A stretch of 13,176 bases of DNA. Source: Bdellovibrionales bacterium (lineage in GTDB: Bacteria; Bdellovibrionota; Bdellovibrionia; Bdellovibrionales; JAMPXM01). Location of the stretch: positions 1-13,176 of the forward strand of contig JAYUEN010000310.1 in NCBI GenBank assembly GCA_043739185.1. Direction: 5' to 3'. Under the pieces are notes generated by a model. That model saw nothing but the letters and a program-made list of their open reading frames with translations. It had not been told where the DNA came from and made no database searches. This document shows positions 31 through 13,176 of this stretch, in pieces. Each line of letters starts with the position of its first letter. Positions within the stretch are counted from its first letter, which is position 1. The translations under genes were made by a program, and so were the position numbers.

Positions 31-1476
31 ATGGGGGTGATGAAATCTCGAAAATCCATCTATTTTATTTTAAATAGTAAAGCTTATGAGGTAACTGGAG
101 AGCAATGCTTTTTACCATTGGCTGATTTTCTTCGCTATGAAAGGTCCTTGACCGGAACCAAAATCGTTTGTGCGGAGGGAGACTGTGGGGCCTGCACCGT
201 GCTCTTGGCTTCTGTTCATGAACTTGACAAAGGATTACTTAAATTTAAGGCGGTCAATGCGTGTATCCTGCCTTTGTTTGCAATCGATGCATGTCAGATT
301 TTAAGTGTCGAGGCGCTCAAATATGAAAACAGTCTGCATCCGGTGCAAACTTCAATGCTCAATCAATTTGCCTCACAATGTGGATACTGTACGCCGGGAT
401 TTGTATGCGCTATGACTTCATTGCTTGAAGATTCAATTTTGAATAAAAAAACTATTACTGAAAAGCGGGCGAAAAACTATATGACCGGCAATTTGTGTCG
501 CTGCACCGGCTATGATCCGATCCTTAAAGCTGCGATGGCTCTTCCTCTTAATACTGAAAGTTTGCAAAAGCGATTTTCAAATGCAAAGCAGATTACTGAA
601 TTGAAAAAGCACGCCAAGATTCCTGTTGAAATGAAGGCTTTGGGTGTTTCTCTTTTTTTACCGACCAATCTCAAGCAGGCCATGAAAATAAAAATGAATG
701 AAAAGGCTGTGCAAATTGTAGCCGGCGCTACTGACATAGGAGTAGCCGTTAACAAGGGGCGAACTGAATATCGGAACGTCATGTCTCTTCAAAATATTTC
801 AGATCTTTGGGAAATTAAAAAAACCAATGATTATATCGAAATATCTGCCAGAGTTCCGCTTTCAGAAGTTCAAAAGTATTTTAAAAAAGTCTTTCCCGAA
901 ATGGACCAGATGCTCAATATTTTTGCCTCCCCGCAAATTAAAAATTCAGCTACTCTGGTTGGAAATGTCGTAAACGCCTCTCCGATTGCAGATAGTATTC
1001 CATTTTTGATGGCTCAAGATGCTCAGGTAAAAATTGAAAGTGCCAAAGGGACCAGGCTCGTTCCGATTGATAAGTTTTACCTTGGATATAAAAAGCTCAA
1101 TTTGAAATCTCATGAACTCGTGAGTGCCATTCGCATTCCGACGCCCTCAAAACATGATGTTTTGAAATTGATGAAGGTCTCGCTTCGCAAAGATCTCGAC
1201 ATTTCTGCGGTTACCTTGGCAATTCGAATTCGACAGGAAAAAAACGATATTAGTGAAGCCCGAATTGTTTTTGGAGGAGTGGGCCCAGTGGTTTTTCGTA
1301 TTCCGAAAATTGAAAAGCAGTGGCTAGGACAGAGGTTTAAAAAAGAACTCCTGCTCGATCTCTCACAAAATATTTCAAAATATGTTGCGCCCATTTCCGA
1401 TGTGAGGGGCTCAAAGGAATATCGCAATTTGTTGTGCTGCAATCTCTTGAAAAAAATGGCAGATGAAATGATATGA
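31..1476 (+). CDS. xdhA: Xanthine dehydrogenase small subunit (two [2Fe-2S] clusters + FAD)
   Basis: GTKIVCAEGDCGAC and VNAC (first Fe-S cluster), QCGYCTPGF and GNLCRCTGY (second Fe-S cluster), FAD motifs AGATD and FASPQIKNSATLVGNVVNASPIAD, C-terminal PISDVRGSKEYR. Overlaps the next gene by ATGA. The start could be the ATG at 40 instead of 31. Confidence 0.95.
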   Translation: MGVMKSRKSIYFILNSKAYEVTGEQCFLPLADFLRYERSLTGTKIVCAEGDCGACTVLLASVHELDKGLLKFKAVNACILPLFAIDACQILSVEALKYENSLHPVQTSMLNQFASQCGYCTPGFVCAMTSLLEDSILNKKTITEKRAKNYMTGNLCRCTGYDPILKAAMALPLNTESLQKRFSNAKQITELKKHAKIPVEMKALGVSLFLPTNLKQAMKIKMNEKAVQIVAGATDIGVAVNKGRTEYRNVMSLQNISDLWEIKKTNDYIEISARVPLSEVQKYFKKVFPEMDQMLNIFASPQIKNSATLVGNVVNASPIADSIPFLMAQDAQVKIESAKGTRLVPIDKFYLGYKKLNLKSHELVSAIRIPTPSKHDVLKLMKVSLRKDLDISAVTLAIRIRQEKNDISEARIVFGGVGPVVFRIPKIEKQWLGQRFKKELLLDLSQNISKYVAPISDVRGSKEYRNLLCCNLLKKMADEMI

Positions 1477-3860
1477 AGGATTTGGCAGAAGAGTCTAAAA
1501 TAGATCAATTGCGACTTTTGATGCCGCAAAATACTATTCACGAAGGGGCTTATTCTCATATAACCGGAGAAAGTCTGTTCGTAGACGATATTGCGCCACA
1601 GAAAGATGAATTGCAAATTGGGTATTTGGGTAGCCCGGTAGCCTGTGGAATCTTAAAAAATATTAATACTTCAAGTGCGCTAAAAATTTCGGGAGTTGTT
1701 GCCGTATTGACAGCAAAAGATATTAAAAACAATCTTTGGGGCACAATCAAGCAGGACCAACCCATACTTATAGATAAAGAAATCGGCTATCGAGATGAAC
1801 CAATTTGTATTATAGTGGCCGATAATAAAAAAGCCGTTGCACTCGCCAAAAAAGCTATCGAGCTTGAAATTGAAGAACATATTCCCGTTCTGTCTCTAGA
1901 TGAAGCTATAAAAAATAAAATGTTTTTGTACTCGCCACTTGCTTTTCAATGTGGGGATGTCGATCTGGCTATGAAAAATTCCCAACATAAATTATCTGGA
2001 AGTTTTGAGATCGGCGGTCAAGAACACTTTTACCTCGAGTCACAAGCAGCCTTAGTATATCCGATTGAAGGCAATCAAATTAAGGTGATTTCTTCAACTC
2101 AGCATCCCACCGAGACGCAACACTTAGTAGCAGAATCTCTGGGCCTTGATTATCATCAAGTGGTTTGTGAAGTTCGTCGCATGGGGGGTGCCTTTGGTGG
2201 AAAAGAGAGCCAAGCTGCGCCCTTTGCTGCAATGGCAGCCCTCGCAGCCTTTAAATTTAAAAGATCCGCTCGAATTGCGATTTCAAAAGACGAAGACATG
2301 AAGGTGACAGGCAAACGTCACCCTTTTAAACAATTTTACGAGGTTGGATTTGATCAGACTGGTATAATTTTAGGGCTCAAAGTGAAACTCTACGCCGATG
2401 CTGGCGCCTATACAGATCTCACACCATCCATTCTCGATCGAGCCATGTTTCATACCGATGGCTCCTATTATCTTGAAAATGCTCTCATTGAAGCTTGGGC
2501 GTGTAAGACCAATACTCATTCGAATACGGCGTTTAGAGGTTTTGGCGGCCCGCAAGGGAATCTATTAATCGAATATATTATTGAAGATATAGCGCAATAT
2601 TTAAATAAAGATGCAGCTCAAATACGCGAACTCAATCTTTATCAAAAAGAAACGCGCAACTATACTCCCTATGGACAATGTGTAGAAAACAATCTGTTGC
2701 CAGATCTTTTTTCAAAAATAATCGAAGATTCTAATTATTTGGTAAGAAGAAATGAGATCAAAGCCTTTAATGAAAGGGACAAGACTCATATAAAAGGACT
2801 TGCCTTAACAGCTTGTAAATTTGGAATTTCATTTACCGCCAAATTTCTCAATCAAGGGAATGCATTGGTTAATATTCACCGTGACGGCAGTATTCAGGTG
2901 TCAACAGGCGCAACTGAAATGGGTCAGGGAGTAAATACAAAGATTGCTCAAGTTGTAGCTCATGAATTTGGAATTTCTGTCAACAAAGTTCAAGTTCTGG
3001 TCACTTCGACAGAGAAGAATGCCAATACTTCACCTACCGCGGCTTCAAGTGGTTCCGATATTAATTGCTCGGCTGCTCTGCTTGCGTGTGAGAAGATAAA
3101 ATATCGTTTAGCGCAAATTGCAATTTCTTATTTGGTGACTCAGCCGCGACCTCCAATTGCGCCAAGCCTAAAAGAAATTGAAGTAACAGACACAAGTGAA
3201 CTTGCGAATGTCAGTATTCACGAGGTTGAATTTCGTGAAAATATGGTTTCATATAAAAACTCCAAAATGATGCTCATAGATCTTATTGAGCTTGCATATT
3301 TAAACAGAATTTCGATCAGTGATTACGCTCATTATAAAACCGAAGGACTTTCTTTTGATCGCTCCAAATCAAAAGGAAATGCGTTCAAATATTTCACTCC
3401 AGGAGTTGCCGTTTCAGAAGTCCTCATCGATCGCTATACTGGTGAAACCAAAATACTACGAGCGGATATCCTAATGGATCTCGGAAGACCCATGAATTTG
3501 GGAATTGATTTGGGCCAAGTGACGGGCGGATTCATTCAAGGGGCAGGCTGGATGACAACTGAAAAACTATATTACAGTCCGCAAGGCGCACTCCTTTCCT
3601 ATTCGCCAACGACTTATAAAATTCCAAATATTCAAGATACTCCACGTATTTTTAATGTAAAATTATTAGAAAATAACCTAAATGTGAAAAATGTCTCTCG
3701 ATCGAAAGCTGTGGGCGAGCCACCACTTTTATTAAGCGCCAGTGTTTTTATGGCAATTAAGAATGCGCTAAGTTACAAATCGAAGGGAAAACGCATTGAA
3801 CTCAAACTCCCGGCAACTCCAGAAGTTATTTTAACCGAACTTCATCGTCATGAACTTTGA
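1473..3860 (+). CDS. xdhB: Xanthine dehydrogenase molybdopterin-binding subunit
   Basis: GGQEHFYLE, SSTQHP, RRMGGAFGGKESQ (substrate Glu), DRAMFH (substrate Arg), TAFRGFGGPQG, TEMGQG, SPTAASSGSD and SKAVGEPP (catalytic Glu). Translationally coupled to xdhA through ATGA at 1473-1476. Confidence 0.96.
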   Translation: MKDLAEESKIDQLRLLMPQNTIHEGAYSHITGESLFVDDIAPQKDELQIGYLGSPVACGILKNINTSSALKISGVVAVLTAKDIKNNLWGTIKQDQPILIDKEIGYRDEPICIIVADNKKAVALAKKAIELEIEEHIPVLSLDEAIKNKMFLYSPLAFQCGDVDLAMKNSQHKLSGSFEIGGQEHFYLESQAALVYPIEGNQIKVISSTQHPTETQHLVAESLGLDYHQVVCEVRRMGGAFGGKESQAAPFAAMAALAAFKFKRSARIAISKDEDMKVTGKRHPFKQFYEVGFDQTGIILGLKVKLYADAGAYTDLTPSILDRAMFHTDGSYYLENALIEAWACKTNTHSNTAFRGFGGPQGNLLIEYIIEDIAQYLNKDAAQIRELNLYQKETRNYTPYGQCVENNLLPDLFSKIIEDSNYLVRRNEIKAFNERDKTHIKGLALTACKFGISFTAKFLNQGNALVNIHRDGSIQVSTGATEMGQGVNTKIAQVVAHEFGISVNKVQVLVTSTEKNANTSPTAASSGSDINCSAALLACEKIKYRLAQIAISYLVTQPRPPIAPSLKEIEVTDTSELANVSIHEVEFRENMVSYKNSKMMLIDLIELAYLNRISISDYAHYKTEGLSFDRSKSKGNAFKYFTPGVAVSEVLIDRYTGETKILRADILMDLGRPMNLGIDLGQVTGGFIQGAGWMTTEKLYYSPQGALLSYSPTTYKIPNIQDTPRIFNVKLLENNLNVKNVSRSKAVGEPPLLLSASVFMAIKNALSYKSKGKRIELKLPATPEVILTELHRHEL

Positions 3861-4641
3861 AGCTTTTTTGTCGGAATTTAAAGCAGCTCAAGGAAGTGGT
3901 CGCCCCTTTGTTGTCGTGACTTTAGTCGATTGCCAAGGCAGTGCTCCCCAAGAAGTTGGTGCCCGCATGATTGTCAATGATCTGGGTTATTTATCAGGAA
4001 CTGTGGGCGGCGGAAAATTAGAAAAGGCAAGTATTGAAAAAGCCCAACAGCTCTTAACTGATAAAGTAATGCAACCGCAATTTCAAAAATGGAATTTACA
4101 GAGCGATCTCAAAATGAGTTGTGGCGGAGTCGTGAGCTTATTTTTTGAAATGCATAATCCCTTGGGACTTTGGAAAGTGGTGATCTTTGGAGCCGGCCAT
4201 GTTTCACAAGAACTCATTCGGGTTTTACTTCGTCTAGAATGCCAAATTATTTGCATTGATCCTCGCCTTGAATGGCTTGCTAAATTGCCAAAGGATGCCA
4301 AGCTTCAAATTGAAAATTGTCAAGATATGCCCGAAAGAGCACGAAATATAGCCAAAGAATCCTTTGTTGTACTTGCTACGATGGGGCATTCAACTGACTT
4401 TCCTATCTTAAGAGAACTATTGCTGTCGCAATCCTATTCCTATATTGGAGTTTTAGGCAGCGATGTCAAAGCTCAGAAGATGCGGCAGGAGCTTAAGAAT
4501 GAATGCATTTCGGATCAAAAAATAAATTCATTTTTCTGTCCAATTGGTGAATTCATTGGGGACAATACGCCTGCTGAAATTGCCATTAGTATTTCTGCCC
4601 AATTGTTAAAAATTCGTGATCTCAAGAATTCAAGCCGCTAA
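3850..4641 (+). CDS. xdhC: Xanthine dehydrogenase accessory (Moco sulfuration/insertion) protein XdhC
   Basis: GSAPQEVGARM, GTVGGGKLE, CGGVV, Rossmann-like IFGAGHV, TMGHSTD, YIGVLGS, CPIG and PAEIAISI. Overlaps the xdhB end by 11 bp. Confidence 0.93.
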   Translation: MNFEAFLSEFKAAQGSGRPFVVVTLVDCQGSAPQEVGARMIVNDLGYLSGTVGGGKLEKASIEKAQQLLTDKVMQPQFQKWNLQSDLKMSCGGVVSLFFEMHNPLGLWKVVIFGAGHVSQELIRVLLRLECQIICIDPRLEWLAKLPKDAKLQIENCQDMPERARNIAKESFVVLATMGHSTDFPILRELLLSQSYSYIGVLGSDVKAQKMRQELKNECISDQKINSFFCPIGEFIGDNTPAEIAISISAQLLKIRDLKNSSR

Positions 4642-5650
4642 AACGTGAAAAAACGCGAATGCGATTGAAGCCGCCATCTGGGTATACCTTGATTTTTAAT
4701 TGTTGAACTTTATCGTTTAAACCAATTGGCATCGTAAATGTATTGCCAGCATAGGCTTTGACGTTGGTGCGAGAAATCAGATCCAACCATTGCTCTTTTA
4801 CAAAGGCTTGAATTTGCATTTTTAGGGGATTGTTATTTTTAAAGTATGTGAAATCAATTTCAATGTGATGAATTTTGCAGTCTTGCTTCAAACCAATGAC
4901 GATTTCTTCAAAGTGATTGGCGGTACGACTCCGTGCGGATTCAAAGCCATCAAACATATCGAGTGGCGTATAAGGAGATAAAATTTGAATTGCAGGGCCG
5001 TAGTGTTCATTTGAGGCAGAGATAATTTTAGCACCGTAAGCTAGGCTTGCGACATTAAATTCTTCGCCATTTTCTAGTCTTGCATAATTTGATTGAATTC
5101 GCTTTGAATCAATAAAGTATTTTGGGGCAAGTGGCTTTTTGGGCTGCGGAACGGCCTCATGAAAAGGATGGCTAATCGCTACTTGAGAGAATTTATTTAA
5201 TTCAGAATTTGGCAGAGTTTCAAAAATAGCAAAACGAGTGAGGCCTCCATCAGGCAATTGAGAAACTTTGAAAGTATTATATTTTTCAGTAGCCTTTTCG
5301 AGCGTGATATATTGAATGGCGTGGCCCTTAAGTTCAGTTCGATCGAGTAGGATTTTCCAATTCTGACTTTCTTCATCCCAAGCGGCGAACTGAATTGCAG
5401 GAGCTTGATTCCCCAAATGAAATTGAGTTGAGATCAAAAGATATCGAATGCAAGCAGGCTTTAATATTTTAAAAATTAAATCATCCGATGCTTTCGCATT
5501 ATGACGAACACTCTCCCAACTATCCATAATTTTACCCTGCATGCCGTAAAGTTCAGGATCGTATTCGGGAGGATGAGCTGAAAATAAATTCTCAGCGCGG
5601 GCAAACTTTTGATTGCTCACCTCTAAAATCTCTGAGCCTTTTGCAAGGCT
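4622..5650 (-). other. Domain (aa ~1231-1572): allantoicase, two tandem repeats
   Basis: Repeat 1: SNQKFARAENL...GKIMDSWESVRH...STQFHLGNQAP...PDGGLTRF. Repeat 2 from ~aa 1429: ASLAYGAKIISASNEHYG...DGFESARSR...IDFTYFKNNNP...YPDGGFNRIRVF. Confidence 0.85.
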
Positions 5651-8600
5651 TAAATTTAAGAGGGGGTCGACTAAAGAAGTTCGCACAATCTCTTCTGGCA
5701 GCGTGGGTCTAAAAGCGTCAAACAGCATTGTTTTGTAGGCCTGATTGACAATATTTTCAGGACTGACATTTTTTGTATTAAATTGTTTCGGAAAGGATGT
5801 TGTATCAACCCCCTCTAAGTTAAGTTCCCGACAAATCCTTTGCGCGGCCTCACAAATAAAGCTCACTCCATTGCTATCCGCATTGCATAATATAGTGAAA
5901 CCCTTGCCTAAATCTGGACCGGCAAAACAATATACAAAAATACAACGAAAGCCATCATTGGCTCCTTGATGAAGGGCAAAGCGATTCGGTCCTGCTTCAA
6001 TAGTAAAAATCCCAAGACCCATTCGCGCGCCCATAAATTCAATACTCGCTTTGTCTTGCCCAAATAACATTTGAACTGCGGTTGAATGAGAAATCGGGCC
6101 GGCTCCTTTGCAATCGTGAAATGCCTGCGCTAGTTTTTCTAAGAATTGAGTGACGGCTTCTGCCGTTCCCAGGGCTCCGGCCGCAAATGCCGGAAACATC
6201 TTTCTTGAGGTGGGAACTTCACTACCATCTGCTAAATATCCATTTGCACAAGCCTTCGCATTTGCTTTTTGGTCAAAAGTAATTTCGAGGTCGCCTAAAG
6301 AACTAAAAAATGACCTGGTCACATCTTTTATATTGTTATTTTCTAAGGCCTCAATGAGATGTTCAAGAACCAAAAATCCTCCGCCTGAATATTGAAATCT
6401 TTGTCCAGGAGGATTTAAAACACCCACTTTTGCATAAGAATACATTTCATTGCCATTTAGTAAGCTTGAAATCTTTGGCATTTCTTTATCATAGGGAATG
6501 CCATTTACGTAATGTAAATTAAGTGCTGTATGCTCCATCAAATGACAGATTGTTACTTCGTTGCTCCATTCGGGATGGGCAGGATTTAGTGAAACCAACC
6601 TAAACTGCGAAGTGGTTTTTTCAAAAAGACTATTCACACTCGTTTCGAGAGAGATTTGATGATTCTCAAAGTACTCAATCGCAAAACAGCTCGCAATAGA
6701 TTTACTTAAAGAGGCCAATTGAAAAAGGGTTTTTTTGGTGAGATCCTGAAGAGCCTTTTTTCCTTCTCCTAAAAGTAAAACTTCATTTTTATTAAACCCC
6801 GAGCTTATGCATATCTGGGCGCCGACTATATTATATTTTGTCAAAGAGGCTTCTAAAGCATCATGCAGAGAATGTTTTACAGACAATAATCTTTTGGCGC
6901 TAATTTCCCAAAGTGCCTGTTTTGCATTTATCAATTCTTTCTCAATTGAATTTTGTAAACGCAAATTCAATACTTGTAAAAGCTCTGAAGCGTTTCTTCC
7001 TTGAGCTGATATTAAAAACTTGATGCCAAATTTCTCAAGGTATTTAGCGCCAAGTATTCGCAATTGGCTTAGGCTATCTTTCTCACCTTGATGAACCATA
7101 GATTGCTCGTTTTGAGCCTTTTCATCGAGAGTTTTTTTGTCTTCTCCGATATCTCCGTGAAAGAAGGCAGCAGCGGTAATTTCGTTGACATTAAAATTCA
7201 ATATTATCTCTTGAGCACGCTTAAGGTCGAGATTTAATTGGGAAGCCATGGCTTGAGCGAACTCTTGATTCCCACAAATTGAAAAATAAAAATTAAATTT
7301 ATCAATATAAGTGGCCAATTTGTATTTTGAAGCATCAATTCTTAACATTTCGTCCCATGGCCTTTCGCTTTCTCGAATAGTGGGATTGCTAAATGGCAGC
7401 AAAAGTTCGGAAGCAAATTCAACGGGATTGGGATTCGTCATAAGTTGAATCATGATATTGAGCGCAACGGGATACCACTTTTCAGTTCGTCTGTCCCATT
7501 TGACCTGAACGATCTTCTGTTTATTTGAAAGATCCTTTCGAATAAAAACAAATTCTTCAGCCGCAATTCTTAAAAAGTCTTCAATTGAAAATCTTTGATG
7601 ATGGATTTCATGCCAAACTTCCCAGCGCGAACGTTCGGCAGTTGCTAAATCATCCATCACTCGAACGGGGACAGTTTCAATTTGAGCTGGCAGCGCAACA
7701 CAGCCATTGCCTGATAACCAATCGGTGAGATATTGCAGGGATTGAAAAATATTATAGCGTATTTCTTCTGGATGATCGTTGGCAATAAATTTAGACTCTT
7801 TTAAATCGGCAACTATGAGTGAACGAGCATACATTGGACTGTCTGGATCAAGACCTTCAAGATCAGGCCTTTCAATAAATTCAATTATCTCTTGGTGATA
7901 TTTTTTATCTAAGAGAGATTTAACCAATGTTGTAAGCGGAACAGAGTCTCCTTCCTTGCGGAGCTTCCAAGCTTCAACAAGGGCAATTCCGAGCCGAACA
8001 AAGTCGGGATGTGCTACCCAAAAACCAGACAATTCGCGTTTCATTTGGGTGATGACGTCTTTGATATAACCGCGAATGGTAAGTTGAAAAGATGCACCTT
8101 TGAGATCATTATCAACGGGCAAAACCCCATACATGCCACCAATTTTTACTCCGCCGCGTGCACCTACCACCTCGGCCAGTAATTGGTGTGAAGCTTTGAT
8201 ATAATTGATGACAATATTGGGATCTGCCTTTACCGGAATTCGATAATTCGCATCTTCCTTAAAAAGCCTAGCAGTAGAGGCCAAATAGTCATGCCAGCCA
8301 AGACTTGCCCCTGCAAAATAAGGAAAGAGCTCGTCCATCAGTTCGTGGACTCTAAATATCAAGCGAGGATTTTCTAAAACTACAAATAAACGAATTGTCC
8401 CTAGACGATACTCAGGATGCATCTGCTGAATTTTCAGTTCGGCACGCGCGACCATTGTTTTTATATATCGAGCCTCTTCAGTGGTTTCTAATTTGGGTAC
8501 ATAAAAAGCCAAAGCTTCTTGGTTGTGCCAATTGTGAAAAAGATGGAGACTAAAATCATAAAGGTGAAGTGGCAAAGGCTGATCTTTGTAAAGTAAAAAC

Positions 8601-9340
8601 GCGCAGGGAAGTGCAAGGCCAGGAAAGCGTTTAATAGGAAGGGATAGATTGTTTTTTTCAAGGCGATATTGTTTTTTCGTTTGTGGGTCTTGAAATGATA
8701 TTTGTCGACTGAAGCATTGAGTTAGATTTTCGCCAGCACTTATTAGGTCTTCACGTAAAGGCGTTTTTGAATCTTCATCGTCGGCACCCCATTTTGGAGA
8801 ACCCGAATAGTTCGCCAGCAATTCTTCAACGATCTTTGGCTCGCCTTTTATTTTGCGATGAAATGCATTCATAGCATTAATTGAAAGTTTCGGATCATCT
8901 GGAGGTCCGAATAAAGTGATATGATGACCTTTTAGGAAATCTGGCAAATTGGCAATAGGGGCAGCTTGGCCACGTTTGCAGTAATTATCATTAAGAGGAC
9001 CTACTACCAATCGCTCTCGTGAGTCCCTTTGGCCTATCACTGTTTCATAATTGGGATCTAAATAGTCGATCTTAAGATCTTGATTTAAATGATAGGCTAG
9101 TTTGGTTCTCGTATCTATAAAGTGTCTATCGATTTTTCTTTGTTTGAGTACCAAATTCAATTCACTCTGTAATTCCTCATAGAGCTCACAGAGAAATTTG
9201 AGCGCTTCCTTTGATTCAAGTCCGCCGCTCTTGCCAATTTCAGTAAGCTGCGGAACCTGGTTCACTGGTTGAGCCTGGCCTTTAAGATAGCTTAAAAACT
9301 CGTCTGAAATAAAATCTCGGTAATATTCAATATCTCGCAA
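4622..9340 (-). CDS. 1572-aa multidomain purine-catabolic fusion: malate synthase-like / OHCU decarboxylase / beta-lactamase-family serine hydrolase / allantoicase
   Basis: Uninterrupted ORF. TTG start 5 nt after the uraH stop, with an SD-like AGAGGA inside the last uraH codons. Four domain types are recognisable by motif (see the domain features). Confidence 0.88.
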   Translation of the reverse strand: MRDIEYYRDFISDEFLSYLKGQAQPVNQVPQLTEIGKSGGLESKEALKFLCELYEELQSELNLVLKQRKIDRHFIDTRTKLAYHLNQDLKIDYLDPNYETVIGQRDSRERLVVGPLNDNYCKRGQAAPIANLPDFLKGHHITLFGPPDDPKLSINAMNAFHRKIKGEPKIVEELLANYSGSPKWGADDEDSKTPLREDLISAGENLTQCFSRQISFQDPQTKKQYRLEKNNLSLPIKRFPGLALPCAFLLYKDQPLPLHLYDFSLHLFHNWHNQEALAFYVPKLETTEEARYIKTMVARAELKIQQMHPEYRLGTIRLFVVLENPRLIFRVHELMDELFPYFAGASLGWHDYLASTARLFKEDANYRIPVKADPNIVINYIKASHQLLAEVVGARGGVKIGGMYGVLPVDNDLKGASFQLTIRGYIKDVITQMKRELSGFWVAHPDFVRLGIALVEAWKLRKEGDSVPLTTLVKSLLDKKYHQEIIEFIERPDLEGLDPDSPMYARSLIVADLKESKFIANDHPEEIRYNIFQSLQYLTDWLSGNGCVALPAQIETVPVRVMDDLATAERSRWEVWHEIHHQRFSIEDFLRIAAEEFVFIRKDLSNKQKIVQVKWDRRTEKWYPVALNIMIQLMTNPNPVEFASELLLPFSNPTIRESERPWDEMLRIDASKYKLATYIDKFNFYFSICGNQEFAQAMASQLNLDLKRAQEIILNFNVNEITAAAFFHGDIGEDKKTLDEKAQNEQSMVHQGEKDSLSQLRILGAKYLEKFGIKFLISAQGRNASELLQVLNLRLQNSIEKELINAKQALWEISAKRLLSVKHSLHDALEASLTKYNIVGAQICISSGFNKNEVLLLGEGKKALQDLTKKTLFQLASLSKSIASCFAIEYFENHQISLETSVNSLFEKTTSQFRLVSLNPAHPEWSNEVTICHLMEHTALNLHYVNGIPYDKEMPKISSLLNGNEMYSYAKVGVLNPPGQRFQYSGGGFLVLEHLIEALENNNIKDVTRSFFSSLGDLEITFDQKANAKACANGYLADGSEVPTSRKMFPAFAAGALGTAEAVTQFLEKLAQAFHDCKGAGPISHSTAVQMLFGQDKASIEFMGARMGLGIFTIEAGPNRFALHQGANDGFRCIFVYCFAGPDLGKGFTILCNADSNGVSFICEAAQRICRELNLEGVDTTSFPKQFNTKNVSPENIVNQAYKTMLFDAFRPTLPEEIVRTSLVDPLLNLSLAKGSEILEVSNQKFARAENLFSAHPPEYDPELYGMQGKIMDSWESVRHNAKASDDLIFKILKPACIRYLLISTQFHLGNQAPAIQFAAWDEESQNWKILLDRTELKGHAIQYITLEKATEKYNTFKVSQLPDGGLTRFAIFETLPNSELNKFSQVAISHPFHEAVPQPKKPLAPKYFIDSKRIQSNYARLENGEEFNVASLAYGAKIISASNEHYGPAIQILSPYTPLDMFDGFESARSRTANHFEEIVIGLKQDCKIHHIEIDFTYFKNNNPLKMQIQAFVKEQWLDLISRTNVKAYAGNTFTMPIGLNDKVQQLKIKVYPDGGFNRIRVFSRFSGLNS
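5800..6880 (-). other. Domain (aa ~821-1180): beta-lactamase/AmpC-like serine hydrolase
   Basis: TLFQLAS877LSK880 (SxxK), VTICHLMEHTA (cf. ITIxxLLxHTSG), PGQRFQY984SGGG (Yxx motif), MGLG and H1124QGANDGF (HxG motif). Confidence 0.88.
6887..7310 (-). other. Domain (aa ~678-818): OHCU decarboxylase (UraD/PucL-N-like)
   Basis: H728GDIG (cf. HPxIG), NE745QS, YLEKFGIKFLISAQG (cf. YxxKFGFxFII), RLQN and a terminal ISAKRL. Confidence 0.85.
7391..9340 (-). other. Domain (aa ~1-650): divergent malate synthase A-like TIM barrel
   Basis: ADDEDSKTP (cf. ADFEDS), R238 in PIKRFPG, FYVPKLE..EA, GTIRLFVVLE323, GWHD351Y (E-to-D spacing of 28, as in AceB E250/D278), GGM, WVAHP, WLSGNGCV and MDD564LATAERSR (cf. 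MEDAATAEISR). Confidence 0.85.
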
Positions 9341-9345
9341 GGGGT

Positions 9346-9669
9346 TTAACTTCCTCTGTATGTAGAAAAGCCGAAGGGACTTAAAAGCAATGGAACATGA
9401 TACTTTCGTGCAATATCTTCAACTTTAAATACCACCGAATTATTCATAAAGAAAAAAGCGCGCTTTTCTTTTTCAAAATATTTCTCAATTTCAAAGCTAA
9501 TCTGATAGGTCGCCGGAGTTAGCTCGCAATCAAAAGCAAAGCGACCATCTGAATTGGTAAGCCCGGCTTTGACTTCGATCCACTTTGTGCCTTCTCTCTT
9601 TTCAAGTCTCACTTTTACATCTGTTGCTGGAAGGCCACGACTCGTATCTAAAATATGGGTGCTAATCAT
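9346..9669 (-). CDS. uraH: 5-hydroxyisourate hydrolase (transthyretin-like, cytoplasmic)
   Basis: ISTHILDTSRGLPA, TNSDGR, YHVPLLLSPFGFST and the diagnostic C-terminal YRGS. No signal peptide. AAGG RBS upstream. Confidence 0.97.
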   Translation of the reverse strand: MISTHILDTSRGLPATDVKVRLEKREGTKWIEVKAGLTNSDGRFAFDCELTPATYQISFEIEKYFEKEKRAFFFMNNSVVFKVEDIARKYHVPLLLSPFGFSTYRGS

Positions 9670-11869: not shown

Positions 11870-12400
11870 TTAAATTCCCACTGAACAATCAAATTTACCA
11901 CTCGAAGTGGGGGCTCCGGTTTTAGAAAAGCCTTTGAAAGACCCAATATAGTGCCGTTCGGTGTCAGTAGAGCCTTCAAAATCTGGCTCGGTGTTCTCAG
12001 TGATATCGATTTTATAAACCGAATTAGAAGACTTAATTTCTGCAGAAACTGGCAATACCATAGTCTCATCACCATCTCGATCGTCCATATGAGTTCTTTT
12101 GCTCGAATATTGTACACTCGTCTGCCATCCAGCTGAATCATCATTTGGCTCTGATAAAACAATTCCAAAATTACTCTTATCTAATTTTGAAATTTTGCCG
12201 TCTTTGCACTCCTGAAACTCGCTGACGCTCAATCTGATATCCGTTCCACTGTCAGGATTAATACAATTTAAAGTGACCATTCGATAGTTAAAGGAACATT
12301 CATGTCCAGGCTGAGCAACTGACTGCGCAAATAACTGTGGTGTTGCTGTTAAAAGCAAACCGAATGTCATCGAGATAATAGATTGCATGTGAATACCCAT
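11870..12400 (-). CDS. Hypothetical secreted protein
   Basis: Hydrophobic N-terminus (MQSIISMTFGLLLTATPQLFA|QS) resembling a Sec signal peptide, four Cys in the mature part, AGGGG RBS upstream. No family recognised. Confidence 0.7.
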   Translation of the reverse strand: MGIHMQSIISMTFGLLLTATPQLFAQSVAQPGHECSFNYRMVTLNCINPDSGTDIRLSVSEFQECKDGKISKLDKSNFGIVLSEPNDDSAGWQTSVQYSSKRTHMDDRDGDETMVLPVSAEIKSSNSVYKIDITENTEPDFEGSTDTERHYIGSFKGFSKTGAPTSSGKFDCSVGI

Positions 12401-12687: not shown

Positions 12688-13176
12688 ATGAGAAAGAGTC
12701 AAAGTTCTTCCTTAAAACTAAAAGGCCACGAAAGTGAAGTTGTAGAGCTCGATGACTTTTCTTTTGAGGGAAACTATTCCTCCCACGGAATTGGTGTTGG
12801 GAATAAAATTTCTCCGGAGCGCTTGCTCAATTTAGCTGTCGATCACAAATTTAAACATGTGGTTCAAAGCTCGACTGAAGATCATCAGCGGCAGATTTTG
12901 AGCTCGCAAATAATGTTAGAAAAGCCCAAAATATTTTTTAAGTATCCGCTGAGCACTATTGTTAAGCCAGACTCTACCAATAGTAGTACTGAAAAAGCTC
13001 TTACCAAAATTCAAATTAAATTCAAAAATTTTGAGCAAAAATCTGCTGCTCTTGAAAAATTAGTAGTCGCACTTTCTGAATCAAGTAAAGATCAATCTTT
13101 AATTTTAGATGTTAAATTAGTGGCAGATGAATTGATGTGCAATGCGCTTTACAACGCTCCTTCGCCTGAAGCTAAA
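12688..13176 (+). CDS. Partial ORF (runs off the window): putative GHKL/HATPase_c-like (anti-sigma-factor-like) protein
   Basis: Not in the ORF track. By my translation it is open for 163 codons from ATG 12688 (MRKSQSSSLKLKG...) and ends ...LDVKLVADELMCNALYNAPSPEAK, which resembles the N-box (ELxxNA) of RsbW/SpoIIAB-like ATPases. TATAAT lies at 12670-12675. Confidence 0.55.
   Translation, partial: MRKSQSSSLKLKGHESEVVELDDFSFEGNYSSHGIGVGNKISPERLLNLAVDHKFKHVVQSSTEDHQRQILSSQIMLEKPKIFFKYPLSTIVKPDSTNSSTEKALTKIQIKFKNFEQKSAALEKLVVALSESSKDQSLILDVKLVADELMCNALYNAPSPEAK

Follow-up and report, generated by a model that had tools for sequence, protein, structure and literature searches.

The question at this locus is which protein opens the ring of allantoin. 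The window, by which we mean the whole 13,176-nt stretch of DNA that was analysed (contig JAYUEN010000310.1 of a Bdellovibrionales bacterium), holds a purine-degradation cluster. The xdhA-xdhB-xdhC genes for xanthine dehydrogenase lie on the plus strand (31..4641) and are convergent with a four-domain fusion ORF on the minus strand (4622..9340). The minus strand also carries 5-hydroxyisourate (HIU) hydrolase (uraH, identified by profile matches, 9346..9669), a PuuD-type membrane urate oxidase (Pfam PF06181, 9679..11277) and a Zn deaminase (PF00383, 11294..11776) whose label of guanine deaminase comes from its context. A Pfam and NCBIfam profile scan of the eight main genes in the window found neither an AllB-type nor a PuuE-type allantoinase, in agreement with the sequence-only reading that preceded this work. 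What stands in the fusion between the maker of (S)-allantoin and the consumer of allantoate is a serine hydrolase domain, and we think it very probable, from comparison of sequences, that this domain is the allantoinase (EC 3.5.2.5). It would represent a third structural class, with no relation to AllB or PuuE. This reading is well supported by comparative genomics. The fold, the kept catalytic residues, the place in the fusion and the distribution of the domain are what the data show directly.

The fusion ORF encodes 1572 aa, starts at TTG and has no internal stops. Its N-terminal part (7361..9340, minus strand, aa 1-660) is a divergent malate-synthase-like domain, with Pfam matches to the malate synthase TIM barrel at aa 239-451 and to the malate synthase C-terminus at 525-642, and is a candidate ureidoglycolate lyase or malate synthase. 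It is followed by an OHCU decarboxylase (UraD) domain, which makes (S)-allantoin (6887..7222, minus strand; Pfam span 707-818; H728, E745 and Q746 are invariant), then by the serine hydrolase domain (PF00144, Pfam span 830-1157), and last by a divergent allantoicase of two repeats, which consumes allantoate (4625..5638, minus strand; Pfam repeats from aa 1235; 166 bits vs a cut-off of 278). The Pfam order thus bears out the earlier placement of the serine hydrolase between OHCU decarboxylase and allantoicase. Its extent had been given as 5800-6880; the location holds, and the folded domain is slightly larger, at about 5711-6883 (minus strand, aa 820-1210, with the Pfam core at 5870-6853).

The window has a few other features. 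A 176-aa protein at 11870-12400 (minus strand) begins with what looks like a signal peptide and matches nothing in Pfam or NCBIfam, and a partial ORF lies at the window end (12688-13176, plus strand). The C-terminal domain of the urate oxidase has no cytochrome c match; it has CarboxypepD_reg-like Pfam matches and Cys/His/Met residues that resemble those of a cupredoxin. PuuD-type relatives in such cassettes come in both a ~390-aa and a ~550-aa form.

We looked at the serine hydrolase domain itself by profile, alignment and model. It matches PF00144 with an E-value of 6.7e-16 (58.8 bits vs a curated cut-off of 27). The residues S877, K880, Y984 and H1124 are where the sequence-only reading had put them, and they align with the SxxK serine and lysine, the tyrosine and the HxG histidine of the Streptomyces R61 DD-peptidase, that is, with its catalytic sites. 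The SxxK motif spans 6701..6712 on the minus strand, with the putative nucleophile S877 at 6710-6712 and K880 at 6701-6703; Y984, the putative general acid/base, is at 6389..6391 (minus strand) in a YSG motif rather than YxN; and the HxG strand is H1124-QGANDGF-R1132 at 5945..5971 (minus strand, H1124 at 5969-5971). All four residues are invariant in 32 full-length fusions and kept in 203 of the 208 family domains (two of the five exceptions are truncated sequences), and R1132 is present in 206 of the 208. Compared with 20 generic PF00144 proteins, the family-specific residues are Y944, V945, F1102, M1103, Q1125, A1127, C1138, V1198 and N1199. Y944 and V945 lie in the segment H937-x5-H943-Y944-V945-x-G947 (6500..6532, minus strand), and a ureido pocket might be lined by Y944, F1102, M1103, Q1125 and R1132, the last of which is near-invariant.

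An AlphaFold2 model of aa 820-1210 (pLDDT 94, from a 29-row alignment) puts the beta-lactamase fold beyond doubt. Among 48,161 representative chains it matched serine beta-lactamase-like structures with Z of 30-34 at 13-19% identity, the best match having Z 34.1 and rmsd 3.0 over 341 aligned residues. The top matches were an esterase, a PBP homologue, a DL-peptidase and a D-amino-acid amidase (Z 32-34, 14-18% identity). A sequence search of the PDB with the domain gave the R61 DD-peptidase alone, and the fold searches of solved structures gave no close relative and none with a bound ureide. Because no solved relative exceeds ~19% identity, the substrate is not readable from structure. We rejected a class C beta-lactamase (AmpC) or resistance enzyme, as the domain scores 20.4 bits on that model vs a cut-off of 415 and has YSG and HQG, not YxN and KTG. 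The fusion ORF has no TIGR03178 or PF01979 match, which AllB would have, and the model has the beta-lactamase fold; the TIGR03212 match of PuuE is absent from the fusion ORF and from the genome.

The genome that holds the window is 97.65% complete with 3.73% contamination. Profile searches of its contigs found no puuE, AllA, urease, isocitrate lyase or hydantoinase A. It has one polysaccharide deacetylase domain, on another contig, with no TIGR03212 match. No allB scored over cut-off, and the best match (275 bits) is a dihydroorotase. We considered this protein (L001) as a hidden allB and rejected it, since it has 611 bits vs the dihydroorotase cut-off of 482. A 4.5-kb contig (G000:C299) has a second, truncated cassette (deaminase, puuD and the start of the fusion) that is 74% identical, and a counterpart of the 176-aa protein precedes this copy as well. 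It is either a paralogue or bin contamination.

The family is large. When proteins of 864-2751 aa were searched with the domain, 516 matched, and all of the 120 listed had PF00144 together with allantoicase and/or OHCU decarboxylase, most in the four-domain architecture. Named sources among these 120 were Bdellovibrio, Bacteriovorax, Halobacteriovorax and a planctomycete. In GTDB contigs 204 loci matched, of which 80 were kept, and in metagenomes 161 loci matched, of which 80 were kept (65 fusions and 15 stand-alone). An assembly artefact or chance fusion is ruled out by the hundreds of intact homologues. We stored 318 proteins, and 228 of them span most of the domain (208 family members and 20 generic PF00144 proteins as outgroup). 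In a FastTree tree of 88 rows, 17 of the 18 outgroup rows lie apart from the family; P0290 and P0261 have long branches. The closest homologues are linked to purine-catabolic genes, a tie that the sequence-only reading had expected. Two variants have more parts: P0218 combines the serine domain with a PF04115 ureidoglycolate lyase (E 6.7e-33) and a canonical allantoicase (348 bits, above cut-off), and a 1940-aa protein (L175:156-5975, plus strand) is a five-domain fusion of uricase, malate-synthase-like, OHCU decarboxylase, serine hydrolase and allantoicase domains. L157 is grouped with L175 as a five-domain uricase fusion.

If the serine domain is an allantoinase, it should take the place of the known ones, and we searched 301 genomes of the phylum with the domain profile, allantoicase, puuE and allB. 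The domain was found in 44 genomes, allantoicase in 73, allB over cut-off in 29 and puuE in none (allB scoring took at most about five candidates per genome, and sub-cut-off matches in G274 and G307 were left unassigned to class). The 73 allantoicase-positive genomes divide into 43 with the domain only, 28 with allB only, one with both and one with neither, so the anti-correlation that had been proposed does appear among prokaryotes. Neither the domain nor allB over cut-off occurs in the 228 allantoicase-negative genomes. In three genera (g84, g96, g140) both types occur within the genus and never in the same genome. The Fisher p of 7e-18 for this exclusion overstates it, as related genomes do not count as separate trials and each cassette passes on as a unit, by descent or by transfer. 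Nor is the co-occurrence of the domain with allantoicase independent, the two being fused in each of the 44 bacterial carriers sampled. G321, which has neither, is a 90% complete assembly of 520 contigs. In an order-level sample around a carrier titled Planctomycetota, 2 of 79 genomes were carriers, a number too small to give a second profile.

We also took 50 carriers from the 80 GTDB loci, with preference for long contigs and a mixture of taxa. Some of their records bear the titles Planctomycetota and Myxococcales, and the set may overlap with the phylum sample. None of the 50 has puuE or allB over cut-off. Carriers therefore do not routinely encode a known allantoinase: allB is in 1 of 44 and puuE in 0 of 44 in the phylum, and both counts are zero in this second set. 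With the link of the closest homologues to purine-catabolic genes, the reading thereby survives both of the genomic refutation tests that the sequence-only reading had put forward. Of the 33 sub-cut-off allB matches in these carriers, 30 were retrieved and 29 could be assigned: 17 are dihydroorotases and 12 are dihydropyrimidinases. No AllB-like ORF was seen in the 80 metagenome loci.

These relatives of AllB give the best-surviving alternative, although we consider it improbable. A dihydroorotase or dihydropyrimidinase could moonlight as the allantoinase and leave the serine domain with a side job, such as removal of the by-products of spontaneous HIU or OHCU decay, or turnover of (R)-allantoin or oxalurate. 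Dihydroorotases are common, 27 of the 50 carriers have a cyclic amidohydrolase that scores 205-300 bits on the AllB model, and in L003 a dihydropyrimidinase lies ~6 kb from the fusion (the only amidohydrolase of that cluster in the neighbourhoods of 81 loci, GTDB and window together). Against this, the other 23 of the 50 have no match at E 1e-60, and the genome of the window has a dihydroorotase with no dihydropyrimidinase found. Moonlighting also leaves unexplained the mutual exclusion of the domain and allB, and the loss of Y984 in the sole genome that has both.

That genome (G286) has two gene sets. Its domain copy reads FSGGG, i.e. Y984F, and also has H943S, which is as expected if the domain decays or changes role once AllB is present, one case only. 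The locus (L128, G286:C12:1-14000) has puuD, a serine domain-allantoicase fusion with the Y984F change, a class V aminotransferase that resembles the alanine-glyoxylate type, one half of an allantoicase, and a malate-synthase-like gene on its own. The allB of this genome is fused to uraD at another locus (L129).

Gene order points to the allantoinase step too. In ten regions around allB or canonical alc, taken from eight allB genomes, we found the recurring order puuD-allB-alc-uraD-uraH-DUF6986, in which alc directly follows allB; some regions lack parts or have them at other places. The order in carriers is puuD-uraH-[malate-synthase-like, uraD, serine domain, alc]. The two parts lists are one-to-one if the serine domain is the counterpart of AllB and the malate-synthase-like domain the counterpart of DUF6986. 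For the 29 allB genomes, DUF6986 is present in 24 and AllA in 4, never both, and the remaining one is G286; neither AllA (PF04115) nor DUF6986 occurs in the 44 carriers. Because AllA, DUF6986 and the malate-synthase-like domain replace one another, the ureidoglycolate slot has its own three-way complement. DUF6986 (PF22484) closes allB-type cassettes, for example at L132:10605-11972 (plus strand) and L134:3577-4914 (minus strand). It is a candidate ureidoglycolate lyase family, and none of the papers that our search for it listed mentions the name.

The serine domain could instead work at the ureidoglycolate step and release glyoxylate, as had been put forward as an alternative from the start, and the lack of AllA and DUF6986 in carriers speaks for this. 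We judge it very unlikely, and the alternative has become weaker. The slot has a known or candidate enzyme in both kinds of genome, and with the serine domain placed there nothing would perform the allantoinase step. In P0218 the serine domain stands beside a dedicated PF04115 lyase and beside a canonical allantoicase, and with these two steps taken its own must come before allantoate. The elimination of urea from a carbinolamide also requires no acyl-enzyme.

The N-terminal malate-synthase-like domain, which was absent from the sequence-only reading, bears on this alternative as well, since malate-synthase-like proteins can be ureidoglycolate lyases (PMC10120013). Dembech et al. showed this for the zebrafish protein DrMSL. 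The criteria for such a lyase are a glyoxylate site kept with two substitutions, loss of the acetyl-CoA site and a 2-aa insertion. The domain in the fusion scores 141 bits vs the malate synthase A cut-off of 594 and sits in a genome in which no isocitrate lyase was found. Aligned with E. coli malate synthase A, it retains the catalytic Arg, the Glu and both Asp, has W349 at the Arg276 position, is changed at the Trp277 position and keeps Trp365 (numbering hand-counted from the alignment). In the four retained catalytic positions and in the substitution at Arg276 it resembles DrMSL (PMC10120013); unlike DrMSL it retains Trp365, and the lyase group given in that paper is eukaryote-only. The domain is possibly a bacterial ureidoglycolate lyase.

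In another arrangement the roles would be swapped: ring opening would fall to the divergent allantoicase repeats, and the serine domain would hydrolyse allantoate or free its ureido group. The fused allantoicase does fall below its equivalog cut-off, yet its repeats retain the DSWESxRHN and PDGG motifs, P0218 pairs the serine domain with a canonical allantoicase, and stand-alone copies of the domain occur with no divergent allantoicase, which makes the swap more doubtful still. Least credible of all is a serine-type urease or carbamoylase that recovers urea nitrogen, or a non-catalytic spacer: urease is lacking in the genome of the window and in every sample carrier, but it is absent from all 29 allB genomes too, so its absence does not track the domain, and a spacer does not fit with catalytic residues kept in nearly every copy. 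Urease was found in only 1 of the 73 allantoicase-positive genomes, and with so little urease purine breakdown may serve glyoxylate carbon or disposal, not nitrogen.

The domain also occurs outside fusions. Stand-alone homologues of 430 aa have named sources in Prymnesium parvum, Effrenium voratum and Symbiodinium pilosum, and others are in EukProt and MMETSP. For most of them we infer a eukaryotic origin from source labels, context and the peroxisomal signal PTS1. PTS1-like ends were found in 11 of the 62 stand-alone copies that reach the C-end of the domain, in 6 of 178 fused copies and in 0 of 20 outgroup proteins, with a background of 0.3% of internal positions for such tripeptides; 58 further rows, mostly fragments, had none. 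The other 51 of the 62 (some are fragments) have no PTS1, including the named Prymnesium protein, and the haptophyte-like copies, P0134 among them, are without it too. The 15 stand-alone metagenome loci contain 13 intact ORFs, 10 of which end in PTS1, and some are near-duplicates or overlap with the 62-copy set. An ESM Atlas search with P0134 gave generic beta-lactamase clusters alone. In Guillardia theta, urate oxidase and allantoinase carry peroxisomal signals and a full-length allantoinase fusion is cytosolic (PMC9244630). The PTS1 ends fit peroxisomal purine breakdown, as a predicted location that does not name the step. Four proteins (P0205, P0255, P0261 and P0259) are fusions of the bacterial architecture, or parts of them, with PTS1-like ends, which suggests from their termini that the fusion may occur in eukaryotes as well. 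P0261 has lost the nucleophile serine.

We propose the following mechanism for an allantoinase of this kind, for which the chemistry of class C-like enzymes is the model. (S)-Allantoin would be passed from the adjoining OHCU decarboxylase to the serine domain, where S877, activated by K880 and Y984, would attack the C4 carbonyl of the hydantoin ring. The imide-like C4-N3 bond would break, the ring nitrogen leaving as the ureido group, and an allantoyl-serine ester would form. Water activated by Y984 and K880 would then deacylate the enzyme, and allantoate would go to the allantoicase domain. The malate-synthase-like domain would probably handle the ensuing ureidoglycolate or glyoxylate. In the cassette the serine domain would replace AllB one-for-one, and stand-alone or differently fused copies may do the same job in the peroxisomes of several protists.

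The proposed enzyme shares something with each known system. It shares the putative reaction and the place directly before allantoicase with AllB/PucH/DAL1 (amidohydrolase, TIGR03178), and differs in its beta-lactamase fold and lack of any amidohydrolase match, AllB having a TIM barrel with a binuclear metal centre and a carbamylated lysine (PMC13751858 and PMC9863593). With PuuE/HpxB (polysaccharide-deacetylase fold, TIGR03212) it shares the putative reaction and the putative character of a non-orthologous replacement of AllB with no need for a metal, and the folds are unrelated; puuE is also absent from the 301 phylum genomes and the 50 carriers. The class C-like serine hydrolases (R61 DD-peptidase, D-amino-acid amidase, family VIII esterases, LACTB, NylB) have the same fold (Z 24-34) and S/K/Y/H positions. 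Identity to them is only 11-19%, the domain has YSG vs YxN and forms its own clade, and unlike them it is internal in a metabolic fusion or apparently peroxisome-targeted. A chemical precedent is cyanuric acid hydrolase/barbiturase, in which Ser-Lys opens a cyclic ureide ring according to PMC4051656 and PMC3758960; those enzymes have a different, 'Toblerone' fold, and the fusion protein has no PF09663 match.

A metal-independent variant of allantoinase, presumably PuuE, is already known. The domain had been proposed to be a metal-independent enzyme of a new class, and the first half of this is not distinctive in view of that variant, which a 2026 review lists beside the metal-dependent TIM-barrel allantoinase (PMC13751858); in the accessible text of the review neither 'lactamase' nor 'serine hydrolase' appears. 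Novelty would lie in the fold and in the acyl-serine chemistry for which the domain is a candidate. Our literature search, with subscription papers mostly outside it, found no report of the fusion or of a beta-lactamase-fold allantoinase. A known reaction and a known fold are probably paired here in a new way, as a third allantoinase class.

On a wider scale, we lean slightly towards a single-chain line from OHCU to glyoxylate, in which a beta-lactamase-fold serine allantoinase (in Bdellovibrio-like bacteria and in the peroxisomes of algae and protists) works with a bacterial malate-synthase-like ureidoglycolate lyase, DUF6986 being a further lyase family in allB-type cassettes. The comparison also yields testable assignments for DUF6986 and for the malate-synthase-like domain. 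In algae and protists the protein is annotated merely as 'serine hydrolase' or 'beta-lactamase'. If the allantoinase reading is true, a pathway hole would be filled in at least 204 GTDB loci, in algae and in other protists. It would also be a clear example of unrelated enzymes converging on one reaction, here from the penicillin-recognising serine hydrolase fold. This fold, known above all for its opening of beta-lactams, would then have a natural metabolite whose ring it opens.
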